In this document: positions 31,673 to 46,903 of the stretch, piece after piece
How the letters are laid out: every line of letters starts with the position of its first letter
Numbering within the stretch: the stretch's first letter is position 1
DNA from: Vicinamibacteria bacterium
GTDB lineage: Bacteria > Acidobacteriota > Vicinamibacteria > Marinacidobacterales > Marinacidobacteraceae
Direction: 5' to 3'
Assembly: GCA_963668695.2 (NCBI GenBank)
Contig: CAXXLQ010000004.1
Coordinates: 3,136,001 to 3,200,000, forward strand
Length of the DNA stretch: 64,000 nucleotides
Notes under the pieces: generated by a model
Seen by the model: the letters and a program-made list of their open reading frames with translations, nothing else
The model's database searches: none
What the model was told of the DNA's origin: nothing
Position numbers and translations under genes: made by a program

Positions 31673-31910
31673 TAACAGCCTGTGGTGGAACCCACGCGGC
31701 GTTTGGCCAGCGATCCATCCCGGCCAAACAGCCTGTGGTGGAACCCACGCGGCGTTTGGCCAGCGATCCATCCCGGCTGAACCGCGTCGCTTCGCGCCGC
31801 TCATCGTTGTGTTTCGGTCGAAATACACCCGATATTCCTCCCTCACGCGCCTTGTCAGCCGGGCGCCTCCCCGGCCTTGGCGCTCACCCGGGTGCCACCA
31901 CAGGCTGTTA
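31673..31910. mobile_element. Family A element with duplicated terminal segment
   Basis: TA|ACAGCCTGTGGTGGAACCC repeated twice, ending CCACAGGCTGT|TA. Confidence 0.85.
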
Positions 31911-36014: not shown

Positions 36015-36902
36015 CTACTCGGGCGACCCGAGGTCGGGTGAAACCCGCAGCAAGGCGCCATAGGTGTCGACCCGCCGGTCCCGAAAGAACTGGAGCAGTT
36101 CGCGCAGTTCACGGTTCTTCCCGAAGTCAAGATCCGCAAACACGATTTCGGGATCTTCGCCCCCCCGCGCCATCACCTCGCCGAAAGGATCGCAAACGAA
36201 ACTGCCGCCGTAGTAGGTCATCGGGCCTTCGACACCAACCCGGTTGGGAGCCCCGACGAAGACGCCGTTCGCGATCGCGTGGCCACGCATGACCGTCCGC
36301 CAGGCGTCTTCCGAGGAGTAGCCCGGCCGATCCGGCTCGCTACCGATCGCGGTCGGGAACAGGAGGAGGTCGGCGCCGCCAAGGGCGAGCAGGCGGGCCG
36401 TTTCGGGAAACCACGAATCCCAGCAGACCCCCACTCCGATCCGCCCGAAGGCCGTCTCCCACACCGGATACCCGCGGTCTCCCGGTGTGAAGTAGTACTT
36501 TTCGTGATAGCCGGGTCCGTCCGGGATGTGATTCTTCCGGTAGGAACCGAGGTAGCTGCCGTCGGCGTCATAGACGACGGCCGTGTTGAACAGCACTCCG
36601 GGGGCAGCCTCCTCGAAGACCGGTACCACCAGCACGATTCCCAGTTCGGCGGCCAGCCGACCCAGTTCCCCAACCCGCTCCGAGGGCTGTCGCTCGGCGT
36701 ACCGCCAGGACTCCACCGCGACCAGCCGCGGAAAGTACGGCAGGTCGTACAACTCGGGGAGGCAGACGATGCGAGCCCCGCCGGCCGCCGCCTTGCGAAT
36801 GGCAGTCACGGCTCCTTCGTGCGCAGCGTCGCGGTCAGATTCGATCGCGCGTTGGATCAGGGCGAGCCGGGGCTGTCCTTCGGGTTTCTGATCGGGATTC
36901 AT
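36015..36902 (-). CDS. aguB: N-carbamoylputrescine amidase (nitrilase family)
   Basis: LPELY, YRKNHIPDGPGYHEKYYFTPGD, VCWDSWFPE, PTAIGSEP, FFRDRR; clustered with agmatine deiminase. Confidence 0.85.
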   Translation of the reverse strand: MNPDQKPEGQPRLALIQRAIESDRDAAHEGAVTAIRKAAAGGARIVCLPELYDLPYFPRLVAVESWRYAERQPSERVGELGRLAAELGIVLVVPVFEEAAPGVLFNTAVVYDADGSYLGSYRKNHIPDGPGYHEKYYFTPGDRGYPVWETAFGRIGVGVCWDSWFPETARLLALGGADLLLFPTAIGSEPDRPGYSSEDAWRTVMRGHAIANGVFVGAPNRVGVEGPMTYYGGSFVCDPFGEVMARGGEDPEIVFADLDFGKNRELRELLQFFRDRRVDTYGALLRVSPDLGSPE

Positions 36903-36986
36903 CGGGTAATTCTGTCGCGACTGATCGTGTCGTGACCGGGCTCCGGAACAAGGCAGCGAAAAAGTGCTCGACCTGTCCCCAGGCTG

Positions 36987-38369
36987 CTAGCCCGAGATCA
37001 GACCGAGGAGAACGAAACCGATGAGCGCGGCGGCGGCCCCGATCAGGGCGTACGGCAACTGCGTCCTGACGTGCTCCACCAGGGAGCATCCGGCGCTTCG
37101 CGCAGCGAGCACCGTGGCATCGCCGTAGAAGCAGGCGTGGGAACCGAAGGCGCCCGCGGAGACCAATGCTCCCAGGGTAAGCGGCAGAGGAGCCCCCAGT
37201 TCGCTCGCCAGGCCAACGACTACGGGCATGCTGACCGAGTAGGCCCCCCAGAACGACCCGGTGGCGAATGCCACTCCGGACAGGGCCACAAACACCAGCG
37301 CCGGGAGCATCCAGGCGCTCGCAATCGGCCGCACGCTACCGATGACGAACTCGGTCAATCCGAGCGAAGCGTTCACATCCCGGAGGACGAAAGAAACGAG
37401 CACGATCCCGAGGGGATAGACCATCTTTTCCATCCCGAGAAAGGCGCCGTCGGCGACGGGGCCGAGACCACCCGCCGGACGGACCAGACCAGTCAGCAGC
37501 AGCGCCACTCCCAGCGCCGCCACGACGCCGAACAGCGCGTCCCCACCAAGCGCCAGGGTGGCCGCCGGCAGAGTCAGGATGGGGAGCACAAACGCCGGGG
37601 TACGGAGCCCGGGCCGAGCGGGCGGGCCCGCGGTAGGCGGCGGCTCCAGGCCTTCGTCGAGCGCGGCGGCCTGCGGGACCCTCCCGGAGCGGACGGCCCG
37701 CTCGGAGTCCGCCATCGGCCCGAAATCGCGTACCGCCCCCACGATGACGGCCAGCACCAGCATTACCGCGAACCACGGGTAGAGGAGGTAGGGAATGATG
37801 GATGCGTAGAGACCGATCCCGCCGCCCGGACCGGCGAGCCCGTTCTGCTCGAAGAGCCCGGCGATGAAAACCGTCCAGGTCGAAGCCGGGATCAGGACGC
37901 AGATCGGGGCCGCCGTGCTGTCCACCACGTAGGCGAGGCGAGCGCGGGAAATTCCGATCCGGTCCGCCGCCCCCCGGAAGGCCGCTCCAACCGCCAGGGC
38001 GTTCAGGTAGTCGTCCACGAAGGTGACGATGCCGAGTCCGAAGGCGGCGAGTAGCACCCCGCGGCGGGTCCGGAGCTTCCGGGACAGCGCCTCGCCGAAA
38101 GCGCGGGAGCCGCCCGCGCGGGCAAGGATCCCGATGAGGGCGCCGAAGAGCATCACGACCAACACCACCCAAACGCTCGTCGGTTCGGCCATCACCGACT
38201 GGAGGTTCTCAAGGAAGGCGCCAAGAAAGCCGCCTCGGGAGAGCATCAGGTGGCCGAGCAGCGATCCGAAGATCAGCGCCTCAAGAGGGCGGCGGGTGAG
38301 GACCGCCAGGCCCAGCACCGCAAGGCTCGGGATGAGGCTGAGGGCCCCCCACCCCTCGACGCCGCTCAC
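36987..38369 (-). CDS. NhaC-family Na+/H+ antiporter-like transporter
   Basis: FVDDYLNAL, LAYVVDSTAAP, FATGSFWG, FGSHACFYGDAT. Confidence 0.85.
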   Translation of the reverse strand: MSGVEGWGALSLIPSLAVLGLAVLTRRPLEALIFGSLLGHLMLSRGGFLGAFLENLQSVMAEPTSVWVVLVVMLFGALIGILARAGGSRAFGEALSRKLRTRRGVLLAAFGLGIVTFVDDYLNALAVGAAFRGAADRIGISRARLAYVVDSTAAPICVLIPASTWTVFIAGLFEQNGLAGPGGGIGLYASIIPYLLYPWFAVMLVLAVIVGAVRDFGPMADSERAVRSGRVPQAAALDEGLEPPPTAGPPARPGLRTPAFVLPILTLPAATLALGGDALFGVVAALGVALLLTGLVRPAGGLGPVADGAFLGMEKMVYPLGIVLVSFVLRDVNASLGLTEFVIGSVRPIASAWMLPALVFVALSGVAFATGSFWGAYSVSMPVVVGLASELGAPLPLTLGALVSAGAFGSHACFYGDATVLAARSAGCSLVEHVRTQLPYALIGAAAALIGFVLLGLISG

Positions 38370-38479: not shown

Positions 38480-39260
38480 GCCGGCCCCCACCGGGAGAAC
38501 TGGCCAGAGGTCGGCGTTCCCCTGCCCGGCCGCGCTCGGAGTGCATCGGCCGTGAGCGGTTTCGCCCGCGTTCCGGGAGCGATGCCGGTGTGAACACCGG
38601 CGTTCCCCGTACGCGCTGCCCTTCCGGTGGGTCGGCGCATCGCTCTACGCGCAAAAACTGATGGCGGCGAACGCCGTTCGCTGCCCACCAGATCGGGGGG
38701 TGGGTGTGGGCGGGGGCACTCCCCCGCCCACAAGAAGGTAAAGACAAATCGGAACTCGCCGCAGCGCGCCTACGGCGCGCAAGGGAGTTTCGATTTCCGG
38801 CGCGAAGCGCCGGGCGGTTCGGGAACCGGGGTGCGACGCCCAACTTCTCTGATAGCACATCGGTACCTGCCCGATCTCTCGTCGCACTCCGGTTACCGGA
38901 ACGCTCGACTCCGAGGCGCGAAGCGCCGGGCGGTTCGGGAACCGGGGTGCGACGCCCAACTTCTCTGATAGCACATCGGTACCTGCCCGATCTCTCGTCG
39001 CACTCCGGTTACCGGAACGCTCGACTCCGAGGCGCGAAGCGCCGGGCGGTTCGGGAACCGGGGTGCGACGCCCAACCTCTCTGACAGCACATCGGTACCT
39101 GCCCGATCTCTCGTCGCACTCCGGTTACCGGAACGCTCGACTCCGAGGCGCGAAGCGCCGGTCGGTCCGGTAGCGGGGTGCGACGCCTGGTCGCCCCTGA
39201 GATCTCCCCATCATGCGACCAGATCACCCCGTCGCACCCCGTTACCGGACCGCGCGAGGC
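38480..39260. repeat. Family B structured repeat with its 116-bp module amplified (three near-identical copies plus one diverged)
   Basis: GGCGCGAAGCGCCGG units start at 38799, 38915, 39031 and 39147 (period 116). Confidence 0.9.
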
Positions 39261-40996
39261 TCAGGCTCCTGTTGAAGGATGCAGTGAATCCCGCCGCCAC
39301 CCAGGTTGACGGCGATCGCGTCGAGGGCGAGCACTTCCCGGCCCGGAAACACCTCGGCCAGGATGGCGAGTGCCCGTTCATCCTTGGCGCGCACGCTCTC
39401 GGGCATTCCCGCCTTCCAGTATTTCTGGGCCAGGACGAGCCCGTTCGTGATCTGGAAGTTGAGATAGCTCGCGGCCGCGATGACCCGGATCTCGCCCTCG
39501 GGATCGATCCGGGATCCGTCTTCGTAGTCGAGCGGCTGAATGTAGTCGAACACCCCGTCGCCTTTCCGCATCGTGTCGAGAAGGGAATCCGGAACCGGCA
39601 TCCGCACAATCCGGAAGGGGTTGCCGTCCTGATCCGTCGCGGCGCGGAGTCTCCGGAAGCTCTCCTCCAGGCGCTCATGGCTGATGGCGGCGATGGGATC
39701 CGTCTGCCGTTCCTCTTCCGTTATCTCGGCGAGGAGGATGGTTTCCGGGTCGGCAAACCGGGCGAACTCGTCCACGTGACCGCCGGTGGTGATGACGGTG
39801 TAGACGTCCCCGGGGAGCCGGCCGCGGAAGGTGAGTTCGTCTTCCGCCATTCCTTCGGCAAGCCAGATGACTTTGGAGACCCCCAGGACCCGGCGGAACT
39901 CCTCTGCCGTGGCTTCGAGGGTCCACCCGGGATTGCGTTGGAGTTCCACCGCCTCCACCGCGATCATCACGCCCCGGCCGTTGAACTCCCGGGAGCCTCC
40001 TTCGCTGATGAGCGATGACTTCTCGACGTCGAGATCGAGCAGTTCCGCGATGTGCCGGTCAACCGCCTCTTCAAGTCTGGAGTTGGCGCTCTCCGGCGAT
40101 TCATAGCCCCACATGTTGAAGCCGAAGTCGGCGATCCGGAGTCCGCCCCGATCGCCGCGCAGGAAAATGGGCCCCATGTCCCGCATCCAGACATCGCCGT
40201 GGGGCACGCTGTGAATGGTCACGTGACCACCGGGGACCCCCTCCCGCCGGAAGCGATCGCGGATGGCGCCGGCTTCGTCGTCGTCCTGGGCCAGCAGTTC
40301 GATCGCCACCCGACCCTCGGCGGCGCGGATGATTTCGATCAGCAGCGGTTCGGTCGGCAACCCGCGCTTGTTCTCGTAGGTCGGCCACGCCATCCAGAGG
40401 GCCCGGTGGGGCTCGAACTCCGCCGGAAAGACGAACGCCTCCCCGAGCGGACCCATCACCGGTTCGCCACTCGGCGCTCCCCCGCACGACCAGAGTCCGA
40501 GCGCCAGCAGAGCGGGCGGGATTCGTAGCAGCCGGTGGTGAAACCCGGGTGAGCGCCGAGGCCGGGGAGGCCCAGTTCTCCCGGTGGGGCCAGTTCTCCC
40601 GGTGGGGGCCCGGCTGACAAGGCGCGTGAGGGAGGAATACCGAGTGTATTTCGACCGAAACGCAACGATGAGCGGCGCGCAGCGACGCGGGTAACGGCCG
40701 GTGGTGGAACCCGGGTGAGCGCCGAGGCCGGGGAGGCCCAGTTCTCCCGGTGGGGCCAGTTCTCCCGGTGGGGGCCCGGCTGACAAGGCGCGTGAGGGAG
40801 GAATACCGAGTGTATTTCGACCGAAACGCAACGATGAGCGGCGCGTAGCGACGCGGTTCAGCCGGGATGGATCGTCGGCCGAACGCCGCGCGGGTTTCAT
40901 TACAGGCTGTTTGGCCGGGATGGATCGCCGGCCGAACGCCGCCTGGGTTTCACCACCGGCTGCTAGGGCGCTGCGACCGCTAGTCGAACACCACAT
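39242..40996 (-). CDS. aguA: Agmatine deiminase (PPAD family), predicted lipoprotein, with a 438-bp in-frame element insertion in its signal peptide
   Basis: FPAEFEPH, WMRDMGP, EGGS, GHVD, SYLNF, GGGIHCILQQEP; lipobox LWSC; ATG 40996 lies 7 nt after TATAGT; start assignment is inference. Confidence 0.85.
   Translation of the reverse strand: MWCSTSGRSALAAGGETQAAFGRRSIPAKQPVMKPARRSADDPSRLNRVATRRSSLRFGRNTLGIPPSRALSAGPPPGELAPPGELGLPGLGAHPGSTTGRYPRRCAPLIVAFRSKYTRYSSLTRLVSRAPTGRTGPTGRTGPPRPRRSPGFHHRLLRIPPALLALGLWSCGGAPSGEPVMGPLGEAFVFPAEFEPHRALWMAWPTYENKRGLPTEPLLIEIIRAAEGRVAIELLAQDDDEAGAIRDRFRREGVPGGHVTIHSVPHGDVWMRDMGPIFLRGDRGGLRIADFGFNMWGYESPESANSRLEEAVDRHIAELLDLDVEKSSLISEGGSREFNGRGVMIAVEAVELQRNPGWTLEATAEEFRRVLGVSKVIWLAEGMAEDELTFRGRLPGDVYTVITTGGHVDEFARFADPETILLAEITEEERQTDPIAAISHERLEESFRRLRAATDQDGNPFRIVRMPVPDSLLDTMRKGDGVFDYIQPLDYEDGSRIDPEGEIRVIAAASYLNFQITNGLVLAQKYWKAGMPESVRAKDERALAILAEVFPGREVLALDAIAVNLGGGGIHCILQQEPEPRAVR
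40526..40965. mobile_element. Composite family A element inside the aguA 5' coding region
   Basis: TA|GCAGCCGGTGGTGAAACCC...GGGTTTCACCACCGGCTGC|TA; four U inserts. Confidence 0.88.
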
Positions 40997-41072
40997 CGCC
41001 CCGACTATACTGAGCCGGCTGCGGTCCGAAGCCGCCTCTGTCGGGTCTCGGAGACCATTCGCACGAGACGAC

Positions 41073-41363
41073 ATGGACGAGAACGAGTTTCTGGGGATCG
41101 CCGAACTGGCGTCGCTCGCGGTGCCTCACGATCCCAAAGACCGGGAGGCCTTCTGGCAGGCGCGCACCGTGCTCCGGGCCTTTGCCCGCCGCGTCACCCG
41201 CATGTCCGACGCCACCCGAACTCCGTCCGGAAGCCCGAGGGCGGGCCAGGCGTCATGTCCGCTCCGTCCCGACGATCCAAAGGGCGGCCTCCCGGAAGGC
41301 GCCGCCTTCGAAATCGCCCCGGAAACCGGAGAGCGTCTGATTCAGGTTCCCCGGGTACTCTGA
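41073..41363 (+). CDS. gatC: Asp-tRNA(Asn)/Glu-tRNA(Gln) amidotransferase subunit C (divergent)
   Basis: 96 aa; IAELASL near the N-terminus, PLRPD..APE..IQVPRVL at the C-terminus; directly upstream of gatA. Confidence 0.72.
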   Translation: MDENEFLGIAELASLAVPHDPKDREAFWQARTVLRAFARRVTRMSDATRTPSGSPRAGQASCPLRPDDPKGGLPEGAAFEIAPETGERLIQVPRVL

Positions 41364-41371
41364 GAACCGGA

Positions 41372-42841
41372 GTGCCGACTTCCGATCGCGGGCCGTCCGC
41401 AGCCTCGGGAGCGCGCGGGGAACCGAGCCTGGCCGCGGCAACGGAGGCCGCACTCGAGCGCGCGGAGGAAATCAACCGGCGAATCCACGCGTTCCTGCAT
41501 CTCGACCGCGAGGGCGCCCTCGCCACCGCCAGGGCGCTCGATCGGCAGTCGCCGGATTGCCGGGGCCCTCTGTTCGGACTTCCGGTTGGCGTGAAGGACA
41601 ACATCGCCGTCCGGGGACTGCCTTCGACTTCCGGCTCCGCCCTGCTTCGCGATTACCGGGCGCCCTACGATGCCACCGTCGTCGAACGCCTCCGGAAGGC
41701 GGGCACGGTCATCCTCGGCACCGCCAACCTCGACGAGTTCGGAATGGGCTCCTCGACCACCATGGGCTTTCGGGGCCCCACGCGGAATCCGCTAGATCCC
41801 ACCCGGATCACCGGCGGTTCGTCCGGCGGCCCGGCGGCGGCGGTCGCCGCAGGTGCGATCACGGCAGCACTCGGAACCGACACCGGCGGCTCCGTGCGCC
41901 AGCCGGCCGCACATTGCGGCATCTACGCCATCCGTCCCACCTACGGCCGAGTTTCCCGCTACGGCATCACGGCGTACGCCTCCTCGTTCGACCAGGTCGG
42001 CTGTCTCGCCACCGATTTGCGCGTTTTGGGACGCGTCCTTTCCCAAATCGCCGGCGTCGATTCCCGAGACGCGACGAGCGTGTCCCGGGAGGTTCCCGAC
42101 TTCGCGGCCGCCGCGGCCCGACCCGAGCTGCCCCGCCGGATCGTCACGGTGGGGGACGCCGACCTCGAGGTGCTCGACGCTCCCTCGCAGAGGGCGTTTC
42201 ACGCGGCAGTCGGGCGATTTGAGGAGGCCGGCTGCGAGATCCGGCGCATCGGGTTGCCTAACCCCGAGAGCAGCGTCGCCGCCTACTACCTCCTGGCCTG
42301 CGCCGAAGCGAGTTCCAATCTGTCACGGTTCGACGGCATCCGCTACGGACACCGCAGAGCAGGCCAGGAAATCCTGTCGACCACGTTTCGGGAGAGCCGC
42401 ACCCAGGGTTTCGGGACCGAGGTGCGCCGGCGCATCCTGCTCGGGACCACCGTTTTGTCCAGAGGGTACCGGGACGCGATTTACGGGGCGGCTACCGAAG
42501 CGCGCCGACAGATCACCGCGCACGTGCACTCCACCTTCGACCACGGGGCACTGCTCCTGCTCCCGATCACGAAGGTCCCCCCTCGCCGTCTCGCCGATCC
42601 GGTGCCCGCCGCCGCCGACTACGATGGAGACCGGTTCACGATTCTCGCCGCCCTCGCGGGAGTGCCGGCGATCGCCGTCCCGGCGGGCGAGCGGAGCGGC
42701 CTCCCGTTCGGAGTCGAACTGATGGCCCCCCCCTGGAACGAGGCCGCGCTCTTCTCGGCGGCGGCCGCGTTCAGCGCGATCCCGAGCCCCGCCGCCCGGC
42801 GGCCCAGGAGTCCCAGCCCCGGGGCGGCAGAGGTTCGGTGA
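41372..42841 (+). CDS. gatA: Asp-tRNA(Asn)/Glu-tRNA(Gln) amidotransferase subunit A
   Basis: VKDNI, NLDEFGMGSS, GGSSGG, GTDTGGSVRQPA, EASSNLSRFDGIRYG, EVRRRILLGT; start uncertain. Confidence 0.92.
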   Translation: MPTSDRGPSAASGARGEPSLAAATEAALERAEEINRRIHAFLHLDREGALATARALDRQSPDCRGPLFGLPVGVKDNIAVRGLPSTSGSALLRDYRAPYDATVVERLRKAGTVILGTANLDEFGMGSSTTMGFRGPTRNPLDPTRITGGSSGGPAAAVAAGAITAALGTDTGGSVRQPAAHCGIYAIRPTYGRVSRYGITAYASSFDQVGCLATDLRVLGRVLSQIAGVDSRDATSVSREVPDFAAAAARPELPRRIVTVGDADLEVLDAPSQRAFHAAVGRFEEAGCEIRRIGLPNPESSVAAYYLLACAEASSNLSRFDGIRYGHRRAGQEILSTTFRESRTQGFGTEVRRRILLGTTVLSRGYRDAIYGAATEARRQITAHVHSTFDHGALLLLPITKVPPRRLADPVPAAADYDGDRFTILAALAGVPAIAVPAGERSGLPFGVELMAPPWNEAALFSAAAAFSAIPSPAARRPRSPSPGAAEVR

Positions 42842-46233: not shown

Positions 46234-46326
46234 GGATCACCTCCGCACCGCAGGCGGGTCGGCGGATTATCGCCCCTTCGGGCCCGATTCGCCAGCGCCA
46301 GCCCGCCGCGTTCCGGGTCGCCAGTG

Positions 46327-46903
46327 GTCGGTGGTGGAACCCGGGTGAGCGCCGAGGCCGGTGAGGCGCCCGGCTGACAAGGCGCGTGAGGGAGGAATAC
46401 CCGGTGTATTTCGACCGAAACGCAACGATGAGCGGCGCGAAGCGACGCGGTGAACAGCCGGTGATGGAACCCGCGTGAGCGCCGAGGCCGGCCAGTCCTC
46501 CCGGTGGGGGCGAGGCACCCGGCTGACAAGGCGCGTGAGGGAGGAGCCCCCACCGGGAGAACTGGCCCGGGTGTATTTCGACCGAAACGCAACGATGAGC
46601 GGCGCGCAGCGACGCGGTTCAGCCGGGATGGATCGCCGGCCGAGCCCCCACCGGGAGAACTGGGCCACGTGGGTTTCATCACCGGTTGTTTGGCCGGGAT
46701 GGATCGCCGGCCGAGCCCCCACCGGGAGAACTGGGCCACGTGGGTTTCATCACCGGTTGTTTGGCCGGGATGGATCGCCGGCCGAGCCCCCACCGGGAGA
46801 ACTGGGCCGCGCGGGTTTCATCACAGGCTGTTTGGCCGGGATGGATCGCCGGCCGAGCCCCCACCGGGAGAACTGGGCCGCCTGGGTTCCACCACCGGCT
46901 GCT
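46327..46903. mobile_element. Composite family A element with four tandem 71-bp terminal units, between thrS and infC
   Basis: GCCGGGATGGATCGCCGG units at 46622, 46693, 46764 and 46835. Confidence 0.85.

Follow-up and report, generated by a model that had tools for sequence, protein, structure and literature searches.

The DNA analysed here, referred to as the window, is a stretch of 64,000 nucleotides from a sponge-associated member of the Acidobacteriota (Vicinamibacteria) whose closest genomes are those designated 'Candidatus Marinacidobacterium'. The window belongs to contig C4 of a 4.1-Mb genome, designated G000, and carries on its minus strand aguA, a gene for an agmatine deiminase. The aguA open reading frame (ORF; 39242..41074, 610 aa) continues without a break across a repeat element, an array of MITEs (transposable elements of the miniature, inverted-repeat type). 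A profile search matched the PAD_porph family (PF04371), Porphyromonas-type deiminases with agmatine deiminases among them, at 241 bits against a cut-off of 25 and covered profile positions 2-321 of 321, which identifies the product as an agmatine deiminase; a Pfam scan of the element-spanning ORF returned this host enzyme domain alone and nothing further. The analysis confirmed that a TA-duplicating MITE is inserted in frame at the boundary between the n- and h-regions of a lipoprotein-type signal peptide. The features of the locus are collected in Table 1.

Table 1 Features of the aguA locus, in window coordinates.
Feature	Position	Strand	Remark
TATAGT, -10-like box, 7 nt before the start codon	41004..41009	-	box in 16 of 18 orthologue loci
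Ancestral ATG (40994-40996) and signal-peptide codons 1-11, MWCSTSGRSAL	40964..40996	-	final codon CTA holds the left TA target copy
MITE array, in gene direction two 53-nt left-end modules, then two 166-nt right-end modules; equals two 219-bp units (183 + 2x18)	40528..40963	-	direct repeats, alignment to family consensus
Arm of the outer terminal inverted repeat that lies upstream in gene direction, TA included	40942..40965	.	
Arm of the outer terminal inverted repeat that lies downstream in gene direction, second TA (40526-40527) included	40526..40549	.	
Two tandem 18-nt sub-inserts, first 166-nt module	40738..40773	-	
Two tandem 18-nt sub-inserts (core CCCACCGGGAGAACTGG), last 166-nt module	40572..40607	-	missing from the G008 allele
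Signal-peptide remainder RIPPALLALGLWSC, h-region and lipobox-like LWSC	40484..40525	-	Cys codon 40484-40486
GTG-ATG directly behind the signal peptide, candidate internal start	40454..40459	-	used in the public 404-aa call
PAD_porph (agmatine deiminase) domain	39263..40429	-	residues 216-604 of the 610-aa ORF, E 2.2e-71
Complete aguA frame from the ancestral ATG	39242..40996	-	584-aa precursor, Cys+1 = residue 171

The element proper comprises 436 nt, or 438 nt with one TA, and reads as 146 codons between codons 11 and 12 of a 25-codon signal peptide. TA stands on both sides of it (40964-40965 and 40526-40527), the outer inverted repeats are 24 nt long and 96% complementary, and the interior contains a pair of 166-nt copies that share 98% identity and a pair of 53-nt copies that share 83%. 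From the ATG to the h-region, a distance of 489 nt, frame 0 is free of stop codons and the other five frames contain 2-6 stops each. A first-pass annotation of this DNA had claimed that the aguA frame stays open through the element and that excision of 40529-40966 (438 bp) restores the leader. Both claims held: the aguA frame was the only stop-free frame of the six counted from ATG 40996, and excision yields MWCSTSGRSAL-RIPPALLALGLWSC, a peptide of the 25-residue form that natural empty alleles encode. The interval 40529-40966 and the coordinates used here describe the identical 438-bp deletion in a different register, because CTA is present at both ends. In comparison with its own genome the array gave a self match of 100% and about 40 near-full relatives.

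Assembled contigs from two metatranscriptome (RNA) and two DNA runs were examined over 39242-41300; of these runs, X1 and X4 may include the source sample. It is hardly credible that the array, or its exact length, is an artefact of assembly. The array interior was bridged by no short-read contig of the four runs, and the G000 bin carries 9.3% contamination together with duplicated stretches on small contigs. Against this, both element junctions were matched without mismatch in contigs of X1 and X4, the G004 and G008 assemblies hold family members at the same TA, and other 438-nt arrays exist in the G000 genome.

The repeat family was found by BLAST at 536 places, amounting to 132 kb of the 4.1-Mb genome (about 3%), 14 of them in the window. 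Repeat places and their flanks were also identical between small contigs (C1, C3) and C4, for instance C3:3055-3433 and C4:3507970-3508348; the assembly therefore contains duplicated parts and the copy counts are slightly inflated. A search by termini delimited 467 units bounded by terminal inverted repeats (TIRs), with a basic unit of 181 bp plus TA and termini of the form TA[A/G]CAGCCTGTGG ... CCACAGGCTG[T/C]TA, the ends being identical in dozens of copies. TA was present at both ends of 217 of the 467 units, and the remainder were mostly inner array units or degenerate copies. The bases outside the TA were Y in 94% and R in 93%, a YTAR target context that includes CTAG. With one TA counted, unit lengths were 183 (77 units), 201, 219, 237, 255 and onward, and 249 of the 467 were a multiple of 3. 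This ladder arises from the 18-nt unit, which sits inside the elements in either orientation and at several positions; when up to one mismatch is allowed, the genome has 1571 copies of its core, 1330 in or beside the MITE family and 241 elsewhere, often in another short repeat. That the 18-bp sub-inserts keep the frame, as had been claimed from aguA, is borne out by the same ladder genome-wide. Both ends and the 18-nt unit vary in number independently, giving modular arrays of up to about 970 nt. Small size without a transposase gene, TIRs, target duplication and many dispersed polymorphic copies together identify the family as a MITE.

Elements of the IS630 family insert at TA and duplicate it (PMC2170065, PMC2229807). 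The aguA family resembles MITEs of the IS630/Tc1-mariner group, such as RUP with IS630-Spn1, in its TA duplication, its TIRs of about 24-30 nt and its YTAR flank preference. It differs in that the resident intact DDE_3 element has other inverted repeats. DDE_3 gave four matches at three loci in the genome; the intact IS630-type insertion sequence (C4:667052-668191) is TA-flanked and lies between two MITE copies, and its ends read GTGTGGTGTCC..., unlike the MITE termini. No partner transposase with shared inverted repeats was found in the G000 genome, the genomes of relatives not having been searched, and the longer TIR-bounded stretches contained host genes and no transposase. The modular architecture of the arrays resembles that of BIME/REP arrays, from which the aguA family is set apart by TA duplications and 24-nt TIRs in place of REP hairpins. 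The review by Delihas expressly leaves BIMEs out of consideration (PMC2229807).

Ten of the 14 window places were compared with the congeners G001, G004 and G008, the other four being dropped for want of clean flanks. In 30 comparisons, 21 places were occupied, nearly always at a different length, 4 were empty, 2 were short intervals without a family match and 3 were unclear. Occupancy is thus shared in most cases, and the aguA site is no exception. The lengths of orthologous repeat sites differ widely (404, 87, 441 and 206 nt, for example; window 31673-31910, 46326-46903 and eight others), and at some sites the exact empty state is found in species that are not nearest relatives of one another; evidently, arrays grow, shrink and vanish quickly. 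The site at 31673 is exactly empty, with only the TA left, in G001 and G004 and filled in the other species.

A lipoprotein-type leader is probably the ancestral state. In all 15 genomes of the genus with aguA, the enzyme is preceded in frame by a short N-terminal peptide whose last part is a hydrophobic stretch with a Cys at its end (VRRPGGNSSALNPAGALLLTAIWAC is one instance), and in other genera of the family 2 of 3 orthologue loci have an in-frame leader with Cys. Judged by eye, a Cys follows a hydrophobic stretch (ILAC, LASC, LWSC and the like) in 17 of 18 orthologue loci, including all 15 of the genus; it is absent from the most distant genus, G017. The first-pass annotation had predicted that an empty allele would be present among orthologues, and a large protein search recovered empty 25-residue leaders in very close relatives, such as MWCSVRGRRILGIPASLLALGLWSC from a protein with 97% identity to the window enzyme. 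It had also named orthologues without an MWCS-like N-terminus as one observation that would speak against it; MWCS-like empty alleles are present in close relatives, so this test does not overturn the claim. A start of the form MWC... was shared by G001, G004, G008 and 25 empty-allele proteins. The leader counts refer to three 90%-identity clusters with 38 proteins, 37 of them listed: 14 of the 37 had a 25-residue leader and no insert, 11 had a 20-residue leader that is 15 nt shorter precisely at the insertion spot, 10 were called without a leader, 1 was truncated and 1 started at MHRLL, the final residues of the repeat's frame. Three of the 10 leader-less calls, P0125, P0153 and P0151, were assigned to G000, G004 and G008, and are filled alleles at the DNA level; the other seven (P0122, P0123, P0126, P0145, P0146, P0149 and P0152) may be filled as well. 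The last of the five classes is represented by P0154, the core of which is 98% identical; its called start lies in the last codons of the repeat (MHRLL-AFGLCSCGG), and here the end of the repeat may supply a new start and the n-region of a 12-residue leader.

Filled alleles of other lengths occupy the same TA in the same orientation. G008 holds a simple 183-bp insert, and G004 a 420-bp insert made of a 183-bp unit of a sister subfamily and a 183-bp unit with three 18-nt sub-inserts; in each, frame 0 is the sole stop-free frame of six. The 15-nt-shorter allele, found in G001 and 10 more proteins, is in frame as well. In P0147, which is empty, the flanks are exactly those of the filled G008 allele (MWCPANGRVTL|RIPASLLALGLWSC), and the AguA cores are about 100% identical. 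In the aguA tree the insert-free G001 branched among the filled alleles; the trio had a support of 100/99 and the pairing of G000 and G001 one of 90/92. One single deletion in G001 was dropped as an explanation since 25-residue empty alleles occur within the same 90% cluster. The element copies at aguA in G000 and G008 are 94% alike although the synonymous divergence (dS) of the gene is 0.6; orthologous repeat copies in general had a median identity of 85.7% (19 pairs) compared to 83.5% for random pairs (134). Nothing pointed to a recent transfer of the 5' region. The data fit one old insertion with homogenisation and losses as well as they fit repeated insertion at the same TA. Metagenome contigs added two close aguA loci, at 87% identity.

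The start of the gene was placed by the first-pass annotation at ATG 40996, 7 nt past a TATAGT box, and the comparison upheld this spacing: 15 of the 18 orthologue loci have TATAGT-N7-ATG/GTG, G004 has N8 instead, and in 2 loci the box was not found. The aguA start shows the arrangement of leaderless-type genes, in which a -10 box precedes the start codon by about 7 nt and a Shine-Dalgarno sequence is absent. Genome-wide, TANNNT was located 7-8 nt before first start codons in 29 and 23 cases, compared to 3-18 at nearby out-of-frame spacings, a modest enrichment; these figures come from a revised count, because internal codons in frame and stop codons upstream had distorted an earlier one. Conservation is thus the support for a predicted leaderless start. 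Downstream of the element, the h-region and the lipobox-like Cys are intact, the most hydrophobic 9-mer among the first 230 residues is LLALGLWSC, and reading of the sequence between the element's last module and the h-region found no in-frame ATG, GTG or TTG. The extension itself is rich in arginine (16%), proline (14%) and glycine (12%), with a net charge of +22, a pI of 12 and no hydrophobic segment.

We tentatively favour a reading, to which we give slightly less than an even chance, in which ribosomes read through from the leaderless ATG and the 146-residue extension stays in the cytoplasm and is removed with the signal peptide. The aguA product would be a membrane-anchored, extracytoplasmic agmatine deiminase. 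A non-autonomous TA-duplicating MITE has lodged between the n- and h-regions and would later have grown to two 219-bp units. The mRNA would begin at or near ATG 40996, and the ribosome would translate through the 146 extra codons. The extension would remain in the cytoplasm, the h-region, itself unchanged, would engage the Sec machinery, Cys171 would be lipidated, and signal peptidase II would then remove the whole 170-residue leader. The mature enzyme would be the same as that made from the empty allele, so that the insertion would be close to neutral. In leaderless mRNAs the 5'-terminal ATG is the default start codon; if the mRNA starts at the ATG, read-through is simply the default.

Several observations weigh against read-through with removal of the leader. 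Contigs of the four runs ended at the repeat, and no start site can be read from such contigs; those from RNA covered parts of the aguA body at a depth of about 3 and the divergent upstream gene from 41026 at a depth of 12. In the filled leader the h-region is short (about 9 hydrophobic residues) and lies some 160 residues from the N-terminus, and Trp at lipobox position -2, which we take to be outside the PROSITE lipoprotein pattern, would be atypical. The public gene call starts at the internal ATG. The aguA-type frame is stop-free in 409 of the 467 family units, so its openness belongs in the main to the family and is not evidence of selection at aguA, and variation among the 77 simple units had no codon periodicity (entropy 0.36, 0.28 and 0.30 at codon positions 1-3). 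For this reason the comparative argument from the frame rests on few events. Filled and empty alleles also coexist with cores that are about 100% identical, which leaves little time for an unused signal peptide to have decayed.

No coding constraint was found on the element's open frame; the family is non-coding DNA that is frame-neutral by chance and open in one frame. A neighbouring frame of the units is always closed by the terminal TAA or TAG. The insertion at aguA neither shifts nor closes the reading frame because the unit measures 183 bp with its TA, the sub-inserts measure 18 bp and one frame is stop-free in most copies. Among 59 arrays of at least 360 nt, 16 were both a multiple of 3 and open in the aguA frame, the aguA array included. 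The G000 allele was chosen for being open; once it is set aside, we estimate a chance of roughly 4-13% that the alleles of G008 and G004 and the 15-nt deletion would all keep the frame if the upstream frame were neutral, which is suggestive but not strong.

The enzyme could alternatively be made without its leader, the upstream part being unused and translation starting at ATG 40454-40456 or the preceding GTG to give a 404-residue cytoplasmic enzyme without a signal peptide; the insertion would then have relocated the enzyme from the envelope into the cytoplasm. We regard this as unlikely, yet a serious alternative. The ATG lies directly behind the signal peptide, the public calls for all three filled alleles (G000, G004 and G008) begin there or at the GTG, seven more signal-less calls occur in the three clusters, and a basic extension of 160 residues could impair export. 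On the other hand, no Shine-Dalgarno-like GGAG, GAGG or AGGA is present within 20 nt before the ATG, the upstream frame is open in all three filled alleles examined as DNA, and a leaderless mRNA would offer its 5'-terminal ATG first. The presence of the internal ATG is not tied to the insertion either: it is present in 5 of the 14 empty 25-residue alleles and missing from the filled G008 allele, and the idea that large inserts raised it as a compensatory start was rejected on the first of these counts.

A further alternative is that the filled allele is an export hypomorph or null, a mildly deleterious insertion that is segregating and has not yet been purged or decayed. Such a state would account for the presence/absence polymorphism among near-identical genes and for the commonness of empty and 15-nt-deleted alleles (25 of the 37 listed proteins), and it agrees with the turnover of MITE occupancy at other sites. 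We consider it rather improbable. The ratio of non-synonymous to synonymous substitution rates (dN/dS) of aguA was 0.05-0.09 between the three insert-bearing species, compared to 0.06-0.10 for insert-free pairs; aguA is under purifying selection in the insert-bearing lineages, which points to a working enzyme over long times. The frame has been kept in three alleles of different length. Shared occupancy of most sites suggests that G000, G004 and G008 inherited the insertion from a common ancestor, in which case it has persisted through dS 0.3-0.76.

It is very unlikely that the element is removed before translation, whether by DNA excision in some cells or at the RNA level. The exact empty allele P0147 and the TA-only empty site at window 31673 are what such removal would leave. 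No joint of 40966 to 40528 was seen in the two RNA and two DNA runs, a weak negative since contigs drop rare forms. Transposition in the IS630 family is of the cut-and-paste type, the cuts at the 5' ends being offset by two nucleotides (PMC2170065), and exact excision is therefore not expected by default. A search of RNA families (Rfam) returned two chance-level matches only, neither inside the element, and no ribozyme or intron family; the 561-nt 5' region folded no better than shuffled sequence (z -0.88).

Read-through of an intragenic MITE, as favoured here, has relatives elsewhere. Rickettsia palindromic elements (RPEs) and other MITEs (ERIC, the 107-bp Correia element, Yersinia YPAL/RU-2) form in-frame fusions inside conserved protein genes, RPEs being the extreme case; dozens of in-gene RPE copies are reported, and the gmk gene that carries one is stated to be translated (PMC2229807, PMC10969869). 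As with these elements, a small palindromic mobile repeat at aguA leaves a contiguous open frame and an undestroyed gene. The aguA element differs in phylum and sequence family, and its translation is so far a prediction. In Yersinia YPO1552 a predicted signal peptide is formed in part by a MITE (Delihas; PMC2229807, PMC10969869). The aguA insert, in contrast, adds no hydrophobic core but splits an existing peptide upstream of its core, and would thus be discarded on maturation.

Within the G000 genome, 3 of 494 places apart from aguA combined a coding signature on each flank with a frame that is open across the repeat. The clean second case, a precedent for aguA in its own genome, adds 61 codons, in the frame used at aguA, to the middle part of a TPR-repeat gene (insert C4:1339440-1339621; gene C4:1339026-1339946, L091:1024-1947 (-)), with TPR matches on both sides and with orthologues in at least 14 of 15 congeners that run across the site uninterrupted; G004 looks different at this site. 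Another is a copy in opposite orientation near the C-terminus of an outer-membrane beta-barrel gene (PF25183; L090:2062-3054 (-), about C4:948561-949553), for which the G000 ORF measures 330 aa compared to about 1000 aa in G006 and G009; this gene may be broken upstream. The third place lies upstream of a gene and not inside it. The census cannot separate gene-disrupting insertions from copies between co-directional genes. Residence in a conserved gene without shift or closure of the frame, as RPEs have it, was found at aguA and in the TPR gene, and it is rare: aguA and 2-3 clear cases among 494 places. The parallel with RPEs drawn by the first-pass annotation therefore holds for the mechanism and not for the frequency.

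Extended signal peptides and N-in signal-anchor proteins likewise have a long cytoplasmic N-terminal stretch before the hydrophobic core. The extensions of such signal peptides are conserved and a few tens of residues long, whereas the aguA extension comprises 146 residues, derives from a transposon, is unconserved and belongs to a lipoprotein leader. Autotransporters have long signal sequences with N-terminal extensions (PMC2805444). No experimental precedent for a leader extension of 146 residues was found in the literature, and, subscription journals aside, a search returned nothing on MITEs of sponge-associated acidobacteria, the genus name, this repeat family or a MITE that splits a signal peptide. 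In-frame insertion of a MITE is as such already known; its position inside a signal peptide is unusual.

Located downstream of aguA (36015-38369, minus strand) are genes for an Na+/H+ antiporter-family membrane protein and a carbon-nitrogen hydrolase, for which there is no room for a signal peptide. We infer that the hydrolase is N-carbamoylputrescine amidase-like. Together, the antiporter-family protein and the signal-less hydrolase suggest that agmatine is deiminated outside the cytoplasm and that the product is imported. Between aguA and the transporter gene, a tandem array with a 116-nt period (3.4 copies, 97% matches, 38799-39187) is unrelated to the MITE, and short ORFs resembling this region continue to about 38400. 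Upstream and divergent from aguA (41066-42841, plus strand) lie a 99-aa ORF without a Pfam match and an amidase, a pair that might, as a guess, be gatC/gatA-like.

The MITE might even act as a population-level switch as it is gained, grows and is lost at the n/h boundary, with the empty allele giving an exported lipoprotein and the filled allele a mostly cytoplasmic enzyme made from the GTG-ATG. Populations of the sponge symbiont would then keep both locations of agmatine breakdown, and the coexistence of filled, empty and 15-nt-deleted alleles among near-identical genes would be maintained and not transient; this is a speculative proposal that we hold to be improbable. If it is true, the downstream transporter and the cytoplasmic carbon-nitrogen hydrolase serve either location of the enzyme.

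If the extended leader is instead read through and cleaved, 61, 140 and 146 extra residues in the n-region of one leader, with matching empty alleles, constitute a natural export experiment, and the distance from the N-terminus at which the core of a signal peptide is tolerated becomes testable. A cleavable leader would be an in-gene refuge where mobile DNA costs the mature protein nothing, in a genome of which this repeat family fills about 3%. Gene callers give a 404-residue protein without a signal, so the location of the enzyme would be misjudged, and such misjudged locations may extend to other genes in genomes rich in repeats of this kind.

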